Shown one piece after another: positions 6,301 through 39,660 of a DNA stretch of 64,000 nt; positions within the stretch are counted from its first letter, which is position 1; each line of letters starts with the position of its first letter. The position numbers were made by a program, and so were the translations under genes. This DNA comes from a virus (taxonomy: Duplodnaviria; Heunggongvirae; Uroviricota; Caudoviricetes): IMG/VR virus record IMGVR_UViG_3300045988_138358; one strand, written 5' to 3'. The notes beneath the pieces were generated by a model. That model ran no database searches. It was given only the letters and a program-made list of their open reading frames with translations, and was not told the DNA's origin.

Positions 6301-6344
6301 CCAATTGTGTTAGAAAATTCTATTCAATTATCTAACACAATTGG
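6301..6344. promoter_or_regulatory. inverted pair of TGTTAGA operator-like half-sites upstream of rdgC
   Basis: CCAATTGTGTTAGA ... TCTAACACAATTGG, perfect 14-bp inverted repeat with 16-bp spacer, ending 7 bp from the rdgC start. Confidence 0.55.
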
Positions 6345-15260: not shown

Positions 15261-16146
15261 ACACCTTTAACCACGGAGATGCCGTTCCCTGCACGATAGC
15301 GGCGGGGAACGGAATTCTCCATCAGGTCACGAATTACTCCCGCCTCATGTAGTTCCACTGTTTCCCAGTATCTGTTTGTCACCAATTACGCCCCTTTCCG
15401 CCAGGGGAAGGTATGAACGAGCTTCTGCTTCGGTTGCAGCCATGACGCAGATATACAGGTGTTTTTGGCAGGAATAGAAACGCCAGATAAATTCAGAATG
15501 AGTTGGGGTGGGGATAGTAGCGATATTGGCAGCCTCCTTTGACTAAGTTAAGGAGCTACCGCGTGAGGTTCCAATCCCGGCACCCGTTTTTCTAAGGTGC
15601 CGTAGAAATATACCCCACGATAAGGCCAGGGCGCAAAAGTCAGTATTTTATGCTTTGGCGGATTTCTTCCGGGCTTGCTTGCAGGCGTAGGCCATTGCTT
15701 TAGCTTTCACTTCATCCAGCTTCCCGGTGATCACTTCTTTTCCGAGAGTGACAAACCAGTCATAGCAACCGCCAGTGATGTTCTGGATTTGAAAGTTGAG
15801 GTAGCGAACGGTCATTTTGACACCCCCAGCGCGAGTAAAGAATGCAGATTATCGCGTGAGTGGCGGACAACGAGTGATGGGAAAAGACAGTAGCTGTTCA
15901 TAGTGTAGTGACTCCTTGCTTTCGGAGCCGCCTTCGACTGTTCCACGGTCTGGTGGCGGCGCAATAAAGGCTGGAACACCGTGAGTCAACGGGGGCTTTT
16001 CAGCCACCTATATTGCACCGCCATAGGTATAGCGGCGGCAATAATACGAAAAACTAAACAGTTTGTCTCAAAAAGTTGACCGGTGTGCCAATCGGTAGTG
16101 AATGTACATCGGAGAAATTTACAATTCAACTTAAAATGTTAGAAAA

Positions 16147-16770: not shown

Positions 16771-16806
16771 AATTGTTAGATATTCAAAATTGATTTTCTA
16801 ACACAA
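16771..16806. promoter_or_regulatory. inverted pair of TGTTAGA operator-like half-sites, divergent promoter region
   Basis: AATTGTTAGA ... TTTTCTAACAC with 16-17 bp spacer between the Ref-like gene and the plus-strand accessory operon. Confidence 0.55.
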
Positions 16807-17621: not shown

Positions 17622-17935
17622 GCTGGCGGGGATGGGGAAGGGCAGAAATCATGATACTCCGCCAGTGCGCCGGAACTATGACGGTAGAGAGTATTGGGAA
17701 GCTGATCGGTCGTACCGGTGATGCCGTCAGGACTAAAGCGCGAGAGCTGGGGATCAGAATGATTCTGAAAGGTGACTTTCACCAGTCAGCCAAATATCGG
17801 CAGAGCGATATAGAGCTGGCGCGGCAGCTTCATCAGTGCGGTGTTCCCCGCCGTGAGATCGCAGAAAAACTCGAAATGCCCCTGGGCATGATTAATCAGT
17901 ACGTTTATTTCGAAAGGAGAGTGCATGAAGTCTGA
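17618..17935 (+). CDS. hypothetical HTH-like protein
   Basis: 105-aa ORF overlapping neighbours by 4 nt. Confidence 0.4.
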   Translation: MSWRGWGRAEIMILRQCAGTMTVESIGKLIGRTGDAVRTKARELGIRMILKGDFHQSAKYRQSDIELARQLHQCGVPRREIAEKLEMPLGMINQYVYFERRVHEV

Positions 17936-18626
17936 AGGTTTAACGCCAGAGCAACTGGCGGAGATCGAGCTTTACTATCCGTTACGTGAACGTTATTCAC
18001 CGAAACCAGCGCCTAAATGCCCTGTTTGTGGCGAGGAAATGTCAATGCAGCGCATATCTGGATCACATGTTGTTTATGCCTGTTCCGGCATGGAGGATGA
18101 CGGATGCTTCAAAACTGGACGAACTTATGCTGACGAGCATTACAAAAATTCGCGCATATCAGTAGTTGATGGTAGCGATCCTGATGTGATTGAACTGCTT
18201 GACGAGAAAGTGGAGATGGCCCTAACGCTTGAGAAGCTGCGTGTTGAGCTGGAGGCCGCTAAAAAGTGTATTGCAGAGCTGGAAAGCAATAGCGGGGCGC
18301 TGGTGGCGGAATGCCAAAACAAAAAAGCAGCACTTGAGGCAATTCTTAGCCATCTCCCAATTAATCATCCAGATATAGACATCGCATGCGTAGCGAACAT
18401 AGCTCATAACGAGTTAGGTGAAGCGAAAAGCACTATATCTGAGGCTTATCTTGTAGAAATACAGGCTCAGGGATTGGAGGCATTCGCTTTGACGATGCGC
18501 GATACCGGAGATGATCCATTTTTTGATTCCGTTGCTTCTGCTTGCGCGGATGCGGCCGACAGGTTCGCAGCCCTGCTTCGTAAAGGACAATCCTGCCTGC
18601 GCCCGAACTTTGAAGGGGAAAGATGA
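17925..18626 (+). CDS. Ea22-like protein with N-terminal zinc ribbon
   Basis: C-terminal [27 protein letters not shown] matches the shared tail of the other paralogs here; CPVCGEE...YACSG cysteines at N-terminus. Confidence 0.55.
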
Positions 18627-18949
18627 TGACCACATCTCATTCTGCAATTACCCAGGAAAAAGCCTTCCACATACTCGAACGATTAGAAACGCTCGCTACG
18701 GAGGAGAAGATATCCCCGGAGATGCTGGTCGAGTGCAGCCGTGTGATATTGCGTCGCAAGAACGACATCGCGCGGCTGACATCTGGCGCACCATCCGTAT
18801 CAGCCAGTCCAACGCTTTATTGCAGCTTCTGCAACAAATCCCAGCACACCGTTAAAAAGTTAATTGCCGGGGACAACGCTTTCATCTGCAACGAGTGCGT
18901 GAAAGATTGCAACAACATTATCCAGGAAGAGCAAAGGGAATCAGCATGA
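18623..18949 (+). CDS. ClpX-type zinc-binding domain protein
   Basis: C-terminal [39 protein letters not shown] is near-identical in pattern to the ClpX N-terminal C4 zinc-binding domain. Confidence 0.7.
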
Positions 18950-19662
18950 AATTTTCCAAATTTTCTGAGTTGGTGAATCGTATTTTGTCCGACAACCACA
19001 GCCATCGTCGCGATATGGATGTAACGATCGTTGTTCATTCGCCTGGTCGCATCGGTTCAACACCATCAGTTGAGGTTCAGTCAATTCAGGTGGGTTTTGA
19101 TTGGGATGCCGGGAAAGTGCTGATTTTCCCAGCACAGCCACTGACCACGCTAACACCAGAACAGATTACTGATATCACGGATAGTGTGCGCAAAGGTCAG
19201 TCTTGGCACGCATATCAGGAATACAAGAAGCATAAAGAGCAGTTGGAAAAATTGTCGATTGAACTGGATGCTGCAAGACGGCGCATTACAGAACTGGAGA
19301 GCGAACGCGCGGTGCTGGCGGCGGAGAATGCGGAGCTGAAGTCTGTGCACCCTCAACCATTCGGAGCTGAGATGATGAAGGCTCTTGATGCGTATGAGAA
19401 GCATCAGGATGAAGTGCCAGAGACTGGAATGCTCAATGCATTTTTCATCTTGCGCGACAGTATCTGTGTTGACACCCCAGCCACCGATGCTTTCCTGGCT
19501 GAAGTACGGGCGCAGGGGGTAGAGATGTACGCAGATAACCTCGACAACGGAGCAGACGACGCAGAACGAGGTGGTTTTGATTATGCCGTTAAGTTTCTAC
19601 GCAGTGAAGCGTCTAGTGTACGTTTGTTCGCCGACCAGCTTCGCAAAGGAGGCAGCCAGTGA
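18946..19662 (+). CDS. Ea22-like protein
   Basis: Coiled-coil segment ([22 protein letters not shown]) and conserved [17 protein letters not shown] tail; start at internal Met with AAGGGAA site. Confidence 0.6.
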
Positions 19663-19952: not shown

Positions 19953-20157
19953 TCGCGAACTTGTTGATGCCGCGATTGAACTTGCTGGCGATTTTTATTC
20001 CATGATGGGTTACGAGCATCGACCTGGTTTTAAGTATTGGGAGTCACCGCATCCGCAAGAACAACAGGTGTTTGAAATGGCCTGCCGCGCTTTTGAAGTT
20101 ATTCGCGGTTCTGATGTGATGGACGCGGTTGCTGATTTGGAGGATGTTGCAGAATGA
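19930..20157 (+). CDS. hypothetical protein
   Basis: 75-aa ORF coupled to neighbours. Confidence 0.4.
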
Positions 20158-20837
20158 TCACCGTTAACGACCAGGCGTTATATAGCCGTATTGATGGTTC
20201 AGGATACAGAAACATATGGGTTGTTGGTGATTTGCACGGTTGCTACACCCTGCTTATGAATGAACTCCATCGTGTGGATTTTGACCCGGCGCAGGATTTA
20301 CTGATATCAGTCGGCGACCTTATCGATCGCGGCACTGAAAATGTCGAATGCCTGGAGTTATTGCAAATGCCCTGGTTCCGGGCTGTCATGGGTAACCATG
20401 AGCGGTTGATGATCGATGCGTTAAGCCCAGCTGGAAACGTGAATAACTGGCTAATGAATGGCGGTCAGTGGTTCTTTATGCTGGATAGTGATAAGGAAGT
20501 TTTAGCCAGGGCGCTGGTGGAGCTGGTAAGGCAATTGCCTCATATCATTGAGCTGAACACCGGGCAGGAGACTATTGTCATTGCTCATGCTGACTATCCG
20601 GATAGAGAGTATCAGTTCGGTAAGGCTGTGCCGCTTTTCAATGTCATCTGGTCGCGCGACCGTGTTAGTGATTCGATAGATGGCATCGGTGAAGAAATTA
20701 CAGGTGCAGATCGATTTATCTTCGGACACACCCCGGCTAAAAGCCCAAAAGCATTCTGGAACCAGCATTATATCGATACTGGTGCTGTATTTTGCGGAAA
20801 CCTGACGCTAATGCAGGTGAAGGGAGGGCAATCGTAA
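20154..20837 (+). CDS. serine/threonine protein phosphatase (lambda PPase family)
   Basis: GDLHG, GDLIDRG and GNHE metallophosphatase motifs. Confidence 0.85.
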
Positions 20838-26997: not shown

Positions 26998-27387
26998 ATG
27001 GGCTTCCCTTCTCCTGCGGCGGATTATGCAGAGAGCCGCATTTCTCTTGATCAGCAACTAATCAGACATCCTTCCGCGACCTACTTCATGCGGGCGGCAG
27101 ACAGCCATCACCGTGAGGGAATATTGCAAGGTGCTTTGCTGGTGGTTGATTCCTCACTTACTCCGGTTGATGGTTCACTGCTTATATGCGCTATGGAGGG
27201 TGAATATCGCATAAAGAGATACAGGAAGTATCCGCGCCAGCACCTGGAGGATTTAAGCACCGGGAAGAAAGAGGCGTTACCAGTAGATGACGATGGATAC
27301 ACGGGCAGTAATGCTGTTTTTGGTGTGATCACTCATGTCATCAATGATGCCCGAAGTGGGGAGTTTGATTATAGACCTGTGATTTAA
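26998..27387 (+). CDS. humD: UmuD'-like protein (pre-processed form), HumD-like
   Basis: MGFPSPAADYAE... aligns with UmuD starting just after its autocleavage site; Ser and Lys of the S24 dyad appear retained; no umuC follows. Confidence 0.75.
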   Translation: MGFPSPAADYAESRISLDQQLIRHPSATYFMRAADSHHREGILQGALLVVDSSLTPVDGSLLICAMEGEYRIKRYRKYPRQHLEDLSTGKKEALPVDDDGYTGSNAVFGVITHVINDARSGEFDYRPVI

Positions 27388-38465: not shown

Positions 38466-38541
38466 TGGTGGCCCCTACCGGACTTGAACCGGTGACCGTG
38501 CGATTATGAGTCGCCAGCTCTAACCACTGAGCTAAAGGGCC
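38466..38541 (-). tRNA. tRNA-Ile (anticodon CAT, ileX-like; Met not excluded)
   Basis: Reverse complement folds as a canonical cloverleaf with anticodon loop CTCATAA and encoded CCA; very close to E. coli ileX as recalled. Confidence 0.8.
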
Positions 38542-38953
38542 AGATTACTGTTAATTCCGCTTACGCTTTTTGCCAGAACCGCGTAAGGCTTTTGCCGCTT
38601 GCTCGATCCCATATGCAACCACCAGCAGAAATAAAAATGTCCAACCAGGGTTCTTATCGGCAAAGGCCCAAAAATCCATCACTTGCAGCTACCTTTTAAG
38701 ACAAAACGCCATTGCTGTTAGATTGCGGTGCCTGGTGCCTCCAGGTGACGTTAACCAGTTAACAATTAACGCCGGGATGTTTGATTTAACCACTAAGGAG
38801 GATTGTTTTAACTGTTCCGCGTGCGCTTAGCCGCATTCACCGCAATGGTAAGAGCACTTGGCTGGCTGGGCGGCGATGACGCCTGTACGCATTTGGTGAT
38901 CCGGTTCTGCTTCCGGCATTCGCTTAATTAGCCAAATACTCTTAACGTTGCGC

Positions 38954-39040
38954 TGGCGGAGAGTAATGGAATCGAACCATCATCGCTTGCGCAATGGGAC
39001 GGTTTTCAAGACCGCTTGAGCACCATGCTCCCTACTCTCC
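38954..39040 (-). tRNA. class II tRNA, probably Ser (anticodon TGA), atypical D-arm
   Basis: 87 nt; 7-bp acceptor stem, anticodon loop CTTGAAA, long variable arm, T-arm GATGG-TTCGATT-CCATT, G73, CCA; D-arm does not fold canonically. Confidence 0.45.
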
Positions 39041-39185
39041 GGCCGTTGTGGTGGCCGGTACTGAATCTCCGGCATACGGTGCAGCCAATTAGGACTACGG
39101 ACGATCACCGCTCGCGAAAGGGAAGATTTGCGGCCGCATTTCCCTAACATCCAAGAAAGCTATCGCATCAGTCTGCGAATCCACC

Positions 39186-39277
39186 ACAACGTTGAGAACA
39201 CTGGTTGTCACGCTGCAACGCAACATTTATTCGTAGATTGGGATATGACCCCGTTACGTCAGTGTTCTCAACGTTGT
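39186..39277. repeat. perfect 18-bp inverted repeat with 56-nt loop
   Basis: ACAACGTTGAGAACACTG at 39186-39203 and its exact reverse complement at 39260-39277, in the non-coding tRNA region. Confidence 0.6.
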
Positions 39278-39420
39278 AGTACCGGTTACGGTTCCGGCCA
39301 GGCCTCTTCCTCAACGGGGTATTCTCCATACGGACTACCGTTTATTGGTCGTTCCTGCGGTTTATGTTGTGAAGCCAGATGCTTATCTTCTGGTTGCTTC
39401 AAAGAGCTGCACTTCATCAC

Positions 39421-39500
39421 AACGGTAAGGGTACTTCGTAGGGATTCGAACCCTCTGCCAAGCACGGCGATCTCCGACGTCGCAAAATACCCTTACCTGT
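39421..39500 (-). pseudogene. tRNA-like remnant
   Basis: GGGTTCGAATCCC T-arm-like element enclosed by a 10-bp helix (GGTAAGGGTA/TACCCTTACC); no canonical cloverleaf can be drawn. Confidence 0.25.
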
Positions 39501-39505
39501 TGTGT

Positions 39506-39581
39506 TGGTGCCGATTAACGGACTCGAACCGCTGACATCCTGCTTACAAGGCAGGCGCTCTACCAACTGAGCTAAACCGGC
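39506..39581 (-). tRNA. tRNA-Thr (anticodon TGT)
   Basis: Canonical cloverleaf, anticodon loop CTTGTAA, T-loop TTCGAGT, CCA encoded. Confidence 0.85.
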
Positions 39582-39583
39582 AT

Positions 39584-39660
39584 TGGCGATGGTGGGTGGA
39601 TTCGAACCACCGACCGACAGCTTAGAAGGCTGCTGCTCTATCCTACTGAGCTACACCATC
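39584..39660 (-). tRNA. tRNA-Arg (anticodon TCT)
   Basis: Canonical cloverleaf, anticodon loop CTTCTAA, T-loop TTCGAAT, CCA encoded; 2 nt from tRNA-Thr. Confidence 0.8.

Follow-up and report, generated by a model that had tools for sequence, protein, structure and literature searches.

The DNA analysed here, referred to as the window, is a stretch of 64,000 nucleotides from the virus record IMGVR_UViG_3300045988_138358, which from its sequence we assign to the D6/P1-like phage-plasmids. The gene under study, on its + strand, encodes a small protein in which an N-terminal helical hairpin is joined by a flexible linker to a C4 zinc-binding domain (ZBD) of the ClpX type (Table 1). A preliminary description of the window had presented it as a phage gene, and its DNA is indeed close to that of phage D6, with 90% identity to D6 orf93 and 87–88% to the ∼108-kb records CMS-2020a and PhiR41_1; it is present in 110 of 5,426 complete E. 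coli genomes, where 104 of the copies are plasmid-borne (records listed at ∼75–96 kb). The same description had called the last 45 residues a near copy of the N-terminal domain of ClpX. This agrees with present results, in which the C-terminal 40–45 residues matched that domain: the Pfam family zf-C4_ClpX (PF06689) was found at residues 66–102 with E = 1.8e-17 and 63.3 bits against a cutoff of 27, and the core shares 27 of 39 residues with E. coli ClpX. What the description had overlooked were the N-terminal 55 residues, with their conserved hairpin. Among sequences of solved structures, the top phmmer match was the ZBD of E. coli ClpX (1ovx, E = 3.8e-15; 2ds5, E = 1.5e-14). The cysteines C67, C70, C89 and C92 have the spacing C-x2-C-x18-C-x2-C of ClpX C15, C18, C37 and C40, and these four zinc ligands are invariant in 30 of 30 family members, while PF06689 was matched by all 34 members searched. 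Moreover, the AlphaFold2 (AF2) model of the protein contains a treble-clef fold with a C-terminal helix, with predicted local distance difference test (pLDDT) values of 83–90 over the ZBD, and Foldseek of this model returned 2ds5, 2ds6, 2ds8 and 1ovx with a probability of 1.00 and root-mean-square deviations of 1.9–2.5 Å. At the level of sequence, the match to a ClpX-type domain is far beyond chance. Neither the AAA+ module of ClpX nor its ClpP-binding IGF loop was found in the 108-amino acid (aa) protein: the NCBIfam ClpX equivalog profiles NF003745 and TIGR00382, with cutoffs of 359 and 371 bits, scored 46.4 and 41.8 and were matched at their positions 5–50 only. Judged by domain membership, it is a PF06689 domain protein and not ClpX, an Ea22 protein or a ligase.

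Table 1. Features of the ZBD gene and of its surroundings, with positions in the window
Feature	Position	Strand	Basis or remark
17-bp operator-like site copy AAATTGATTTTCTAACA	16787..16803	+	Divergent region, ref versus + strand operon with ZBD gene
Ead/Ea22-like gene, upstream	17925..18626	+	Pfam Ead_Ea22 E=5.8e-10; PHROG 368
Shine-Dalgarno-like run GAAGGGGA	18612..18619	+	Direct sequence reading; within 3' end of upstream gene
Two-domain protein, coding sequence	18623..18949	+	Open reading frame (ORF) list; 108 aa from first ATG
N-terminal helical hairpin, residues 11-53 (helices 11-27, 32-53)	18653..18781	+	AF2, 34-sequence alignment
Flexible linker, residues 54-63	18782..18811	+	Low pLDDT 59-67
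ClpX-type C4 ZBD, residues 64-103	18812..18931	+	Pfam PF06689, PDB phmmer, Foldseek
Zinc-ligand Cys codons	18821-18823, 18830-18832, 18887-18889, 18896-18898	+	Within ZBD
Ea22-like gene, downstream	18946..19662	+	PHROG 368 E=2.4e-51
UmuD'-length S24 peptidase, HumD-like	26998..27387	+	Pfam Peptidase_S24 E=1.2e-08; same + strand train

The hairpin block was modelled with pLDDT values of 88–96 from the 34-sequence alignment and is kept from D6-like to P2-like members at 23–90% identity; it is the family-defining module. No Pfam family was found in the hairpin of any of the 34 members, and Foldseek gave no neighbour for it in PDB or BFVD; PHROG 1058 matched it weakly (E = 0.008). A DNA-binding or other further domain was likewise not detectable by Pfam scan in these 34 members. 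The gene had been described earlier as sitting among Ea22 paralogs, which is right for its position between two Ea22-like genes and does not extend to the protein itself: hhalign of the family against the four Ea22-like paralogs of the window gave a probability of 0.1%, and Pfam PF13935 was not matched, so that an origin as Ea22 paralog or derivative was rejected. The linker varies in length across the family, and the whole-model predicted template modelling score was 0.40, indicating two domains that tumble independently. In plasmid CP085065 (locus L013, 302–625), the ZBD DNA is identical to that of the window versus a synonymous divergence (dS) of 0.29 in the hairpin. Moreover, the proteins P0023 and P0024 have other N-termini (Ea22-type/coiled-coil) joined to the same ZBD at ‘...SGAPSVS’, and Ea22-like N-terminal pieces are carried by the rare chimeras P0001, P0003 and P0023. 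As read from these sequences, the linker is a recombination junction between hairpin and ZBD modules.

In ClpX, the N-domain forms a zinc-dependent dimer to which SspB, UmuD', lambda O, MuA and FtsZ bind, and its ligand pocket, mapped by nuclear magnetic resonance and mutagenesis, includes L12, L13, H23, K27, I29 and A30; the substitutions L12S, L13A/D and H23A abolish recognition, and the SspB tail also uses H23 (PMC8808172). When ClpX residue n is mapped to residue n+52 of the window protein, L13, H23, K27, I29 and A30 correspond to the identical residues L65, H75, K79, I81 and A82, that is, five of the six. Across 30 family members, the position of L13 is occupied by L or I in 29, I29 is kept in 30 and A30 in 26, K27 is K or R in 24, and H23 is H in 16, the rest being mostly Y. 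In these alignments the ligand pocket of the ClpX N-domain is retained in the phage ZBD. Family ZBDs are 67–90% identical to that of E. coli ClpX and 54–69% identical to each other, and hairpin identity falls to as low as 23%. Codon comparison with E. coli clpX gave a proportion of synonymous differences (pS) of 0.83–1.0, which is saturated, and a non-synonymous divergence (dN) of 0.08–0.34, and the same codon is used at only about half of the identical amino acids. A recent capture of the 5′-end of host clpX is ruled out by the saturated synonymous sites, and saturated pS together with low dN indicates long-standing purifying selection to stay ClpX-like. Within the D6-like clade, all cysteines and pocket residues are kept, and the changes fall at the positions of ClpX G19, E24, P32–Y35, D38, D42, L43, D46 and R49.

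We tentatively favour, at a confidence somewhat short of even, the reading that the ZBD protein is a decoy of the ClpX N-domain or an anti-adaptor, which competes for adaptors and substrates that depend on this domain. The protein would be a stand-alone mimic of the ClpX docking domain, linker-joined to a phage-specific hairpin, and its pocket-bearing ZBD would bind the short hydrophobic XB-type peptides by which adaptors and substrates dock on ClpX. Candidate ligands would be the SspB tail, RssB, the UmuD arm (UmuD/UmuD'), lambda-O-like or MuA-like proteins and unfolded antitoxin degrons. Having no AAA+ motor, the protein would act as a competitive sink, so that ClpXP degradation that depends on the N-domain is selectively slowed, and substrates that enter the pore directly, such as those with bare ssrA tags, would be left untouched. 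The hairpin would probably add oligomerisation or avidity, or one further specific partner. Such an action has a laboratory precedent, because the isolated E. coli ZBD supplied in trans inhibited RssB-mediated degradation of sigmaS in a dose-dependent manner and was crosslinked to RssB, and this inhibition acts by binding of the adaptor or substrate (RssB/sigmaS) and not by poisoning of ClpX (PMC7226468). ClpX without its ZBD degrades ssrA-tagged substrates normally (PMC7226468), and hence a measurement with ssrA-tagged green fluorescent protein without SspB, the kind of readout put forward in the preliminary description, would be negative even if the decoy were at work.

Several observations weigh against this decoy reading. 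The one change in the six pocket residues is at ClpX L12, which is T64 in the window protein, and the window subclade also has Asp at the position of ClpX L43. In the D6-like clade (window compared with D6, L011, and PhiR41_1, L012), the ratio of non-synonymous to synonymous change (omega) was ∼0.7–1.0 for the ZBD versus ∼0.2–0.4 for the hairpin, based on small counts of 8–14 non-synonymous and 2–4.5 synonymous differences; this is suggestive of faster evolution of the ZBD than of the hairpin, and the ZBD changes in this clade could mean altered specificity, relaxed constraint or diversifying selection. A pure decoy would moreover have to be made in roughly stoichiometric excess of the ClpX N-domains or of their ligands, and a conserved 45-residue hairpin that is always attached is unexplained by the decoy idea; ZBD-only phage proteins do exist (PHROG 12435, PHROG 5259 and a 65-aa protein of Pseudomonas phage PP9W2). 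Full-text literature searches found no experimental or computational study of a stand-alone ClpX ZBD from phages. Finally, the domain is widespread outside ClpX. A word-indexed search returned close Escherichia and Salmonella relatives only, and exhaustive phmmer returned 9,492 non-identical proteins with a ZBD at E ≤ 1e-3, full-length relatives at 40–54% identity included. Of the best 150 phmmer matches, many are short (∼100–300 aa) proteins other than ClpX or match in several stretches; four tandem ZBD copies were seen in two proteins whose sequences were read. The domain is thus not necessarily tied to ClpXP.

This last point leads to an alternative to which we give less weight, and which we regard as on the unlikely side, namely that the protein is a ClpX-independent regulator whose treble-clef ZBD serves as a dimerisation or peptide-binding module for another partner (replication, partition or Ea22-type) and leaves ClpXP unaffected. 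The 9,492 domain proteins with their many non-ClpX or multi-copy forms among the top 150 are in favour of such a role, as are the shuffling of the ZBD onto other N-termini in P0023 and P0024, a ZBD omega near 1 in the D6-like clade, and the position of the gene after ParM/StbB-like partition genes in some P2-like prophages. However, the family ZBDs cluster around host ClpX, with up to 90% identity at saturated synonymous sites, and the mapped ligand pocket is kept, which would be unexpected for a generic zinc scaffold; moreover, no DNA-binding or other domain is detectable by Pfam scan. Among metagenomic proteins other than ClpX, we also observed two to four tandem ClpX-type zinc fingers in P0025, P0027, P0033, P0049 and P0053, one of which combines an N-terminal Hsp70-like and Sel1-like part with two ZBDs behind it.

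The hairpin, and the closeness of the ZBD to the host domain, may also be read as signs of a protein that acts on ClpX directly, as the preliminary description had envisaged. In this alternative, which is rather unlikely in our estimate, the ZBD would form a heterodimer with the ClpX N-domain or dock on the ring, and either the hairpin would recruit a target for degradation or the pore would be sterically blocked. The candidates for such a target are a subunit of a host defence or restriction system (HsdR, for example), a repressor, and a protein of a competitor phage. ClpX N-domains are obligate dimers (PMC7226468, PMC8808172), and HsdR is already degraded by ClpXP during restriction alleviation (PMC12707154); a 2025 review noted phage Clp homologues, of unknown function, that might act on restriction (PMC12707154), and an anti-restriction version of the alternative is conceivable. 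The long-term 67–90% identity of the ZBD to the host domain is what a heterodimer interface would require, and a conserved, always-attached hairpin fits a cargo-binding module. On the other hand, known ClpX adaptors tether by short peptides and not by a second ZBD. The N-domain dimer of ClpX is reported to be constitutive, so that exchange into assembled hexamers is uncertain, and with Asp at L43 and Ala/Phe at V34/Y35 in the window subclade, heterodimerisation would be weaker if these are interface positions. A more specific proposal, that temperate enterobacterial phages (D6/P1-like phage-plasmids and P2-like prophages) carry a hairpin-guided ClpX docking mimic that does more than dampen ClpXP and reprograms it, by diverting it onto a defence or restriction protein or a repressor, or by shielding a key phage protein, seems to us improbable; if true, the mimic would be a natural ‘degrader/anti-degrader’ made from a stolen protease domain.

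The gene lies in a tightly packed operon, and the way in which its ends are joined to the neighbouring genes bears on its expression. In RefSeq, PGAP places the start of identical genes at the second ATG (18626), so that they encode 107 aa, and the spacing of the GAAGGGGA run is better to this ATG than to the first (18623). On its 5′ side, the ZBD gene begins within the last letters of the upstream Ead/Ea22-like gene (ATGA/TGATG at 18623–18628), whose TGA (18624–18626) shares letters with both candidate ATGs; on its 3′ side, its stop codon shares letters with the ATG that opens the downstream gene (ATGA at 18946–18949). These overlaps, together with the position of the Shine-Dalgarno-like run, are consistent with typical translational coupling. 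The overlapping + strand gene train begins next to the divergently transcribed ref and runs through DUF4406, a small DNA-binding protein, an Ea22-like protein, the ZBD protein, a second Ea22-like protein, DUF4752, a PrpA-like phosphatase, DUF968, further Ea22-like proteins (22237 and 22851), a homologue of the theta subunit and the S24 peptidase of UmuD' length. A Cys-rich stretch at the N-terminus of the upstream Ea22-like protein (KCPVCGEEM...YACSG...DDGC) has the look of a small zinc ribbon and gives a weak YdjO match (E = 0.0096). The downstream one aligns in its C-terminal half with other Ea22-like paralogs, and PGAP calls its equivalent ‘ead/Ea22-like’ in the related plasmid L001 and ‘hypothetical protein’ in the closest record L009. 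The lambda-PPase/PrpA-like Ser/Thr phosphatase gene of the operon is at 20154–20837, and its NCBIfam PRK11439 score of 274 bits is below the equivalog cutoff of 326. Outside this train, a cluster of four tRNA genes (Met-CAT, Ser-TGA, Thr-TGT and Arg-TCT) was observed on the minus strand at 38466–39660.

An asymmetric 17-bp site, AAATTAATTTTCTAACA, occurs in 12 copies in the window versus 0.30 expected by chance (≤3 mismatches), at 6308, 16137, 16787, 20883, 31137, 32538, 37015, 40725, 40881, 42131, 53080 and 54287. Among the copies whose gene context was checked, those at 16787 and 20883 are intergenic, and that at 16137 is just beyond the end of ref. The likeness of the 17-bp site to the reverse complement of the P1 C1 operator is confined to its first 9 bases, and the P1 C1 operator consensus ATTGCTCTAATAAATTT itself had 0 matches in the window at ≤3 mismatches. 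P1 has dispersed C1 operators, and by analogy the 17-bp site is probably the operator of the immunity repressor of this D6-type phage-plasmid, and the copy in the divergent region would then likely make expression of the ZBD gene early and dependent on derepression. Promoter and terminator scans around the ZBD gene gave nothing decisive. For the decoy reading, we infer that the protein would be made early after induction or infection, from a tightly coupled and probably repressor-controlled operon.

The likely beneficiaries of a decoy made at this time would be ClpXP-labile phage or SOS proteins, such as the UmuD'-like HumD homologue or replication proteins, or else host responses that are controlled by ClpXP. 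A UmuD'-like gene had been placed earlier in the same accessory block, and this is borne out by the S24 peptidase, which lies in the same + strand train and begins at profile position 8, so that an N-terminal arm is missing. According to Neher et al. (2003) and Gonzalez et al. (2000), both cited in PMC8808172, ClpXP degrades UmuD' that is tethered via the UmuD arm, and it is plausible that the neighbouring UmuD'-like protein is a local beneficiary. Hence, since P2-like carriers of the family have no UmuD'-like gene, the conserved role must be more general. In the related plasmids L001 and L009, the train is followed by Phd/Doc; in the window, a 460-aa minus-strand ORF comes next after the S24 gene, and Phd/Doc may be absent.

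The family itself extends well beyond the phage-plasmids. A profile search found the architecture of hairpin plus ZBD in Escherichia, Salmonella and Yersinia. The word-indexed and profile searches gave about 50 homologous clusters, one of which has 378 member sequences. Distant members are found in P2-like prophages, with phage P88 as one sequenced case; there the ZBD gene shares the strand of the early operon and sits between replication gene A, which it follows directly, and the portal gene. No terminator or convincing promoter was found between the gene A operon and the ZBD gene by a simple scan. Two unrelated types of temperate phage thus share the family, and the context points to an early-expressed position in both. 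In some P2-like prophages, the ZBD gene follows ParM/StbB-like genes: at loci L002–L004 (6662–7937) of P2-like E. coli prophages, ParM/StbA-like and StbB-like partition genes lie between gene A and the ZBD gene, and a YafO-family toxin gene lies downstream, which hints at plasmid-like maintenance in an integrated P2-like element.

The interval between gene A and the portal gene in P2-like prophages is one that we take to be the old/tin cargo hotspot with its defence genes. This location would suit an anti-phage or lysogenic-conversion cargo that alters ClpXP-dependent steps of other phages, such as lambda O turnover or the Mu transposition that needs the ClpX N-domain, and MuA and lambda O are clients of this domain (PMC8808172). 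We nevertheless consider such a function very unlikely. The gene is on the early-operon strand, and a simple scan showed no separate promoter for it; in the window, its operon follows an operator-like site, which speaks for a gene that is silent in the lysogen. Moreover, stabilisation of lambda O would help lambda and not hinder it. A known defence system was also rejected, as PADLOC-DB 2.0 gave no match at E ≤ 0.01 for the window protein or for three P2-like relatives, four family members in all.

The names that the family carries in public records follow two lines. The ZBD call is already public in RefSeq annotation, where PGAP names the protein ‘ClpX C4-type zinc finger protein’ in near-identical plasmids, and PHROG 6797, of unknown function, matches it over its full length (E = 8.3e-56). 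GenBank and RefSeq homologues are also often named ‘carboxylate--amine ligase’ (phage D6 orf93, phage P88 and many E. coli and Salmonella entries). A ligase identity was rejected, as PF06689 is the sole Pfam family matched by all 34 members and the weak stray matches include no ligase family. The ligase label appears to be a propagated mis-annotation.

ClpXP governs sigmaS and the SOS mutagenesis proteins UmuD/UmuD', as well as antitoxins, phage and plasmid replication initiators and the alleviation of type I restriction. If the decoy reading is true, mobile elements would tune host proteolysis in a new way, by mimicry of a domain of the protease itself. Such a protein could explain the survival of labile phage-plasmid proteins (HumD-like proteins, or the Phd antitoxin in L001 and L009), and would give ClpXP research a ready competitor that is specific for the N-domain and optimised by evolution.

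Among known systems, the closest likeness is to the N-domain of E. coli ClpX itself, with which the phage ZBD shares the fold, the C-x2-C-x18-C-x2-C site, 27 of 39 core residues and five of six pocket residues. It differs in forming the C-terminal part of a 108-aa protein, after a hairpin and without the AAA+ motor, and in the changes of L12 to Thr and L43 to Asp. The isolated ClpX ZBD used in trans is likewise free of the motor, and its competitive inhibition is the activity that we propose for the phage protein; that fragment was a laboratory construct (PMC7226468), whereas the phage protein, known from its sequence, is encoded by a natural, selected gene and has an extra domain. The anti-adaptors IraD, IraM, IraP and IraL resemble the proposed action, since they are small, partly horizontally acquired, and block delivery to ClpXP by binding RssB, and the ZBD and IraD have been proposed to share a site on RssB (PMC7226468). 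These Ira proteins have no relation in sequence or fold to the phage protein and act on RssB specifically, in contrast to a ZBD mimic, from which competition for every ligand of the N-domain would be expected. Other phages act on other host proteases: T4 PinA and T7 Gp4.5 inhibit Lon, and lambda CIII inhibits FtsH. Like the protein proposed here, these are small early phage proteins that shield labile proteins from an ATP-dependent protease of the host, and they differ in target protease and in mechanism; none of the three is known to copy a domain of the protease it targets. The protein proposed here would be a phage modulator of a host AAA+ protease that acts through mimicry of its docking domain, which is a plausible mechanism. 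Stand-alone ClpX-type zinc fingers are also encoded in other phage genomes, as in PHROG 12435, 5259 and 20296 and in the 65-aa ‘Clp protease’ of PP9W2; these are without the N-terminal hairpin and belong to different PHROG families, whereas the protein of the window joins such a finger to a hairpin of its own.

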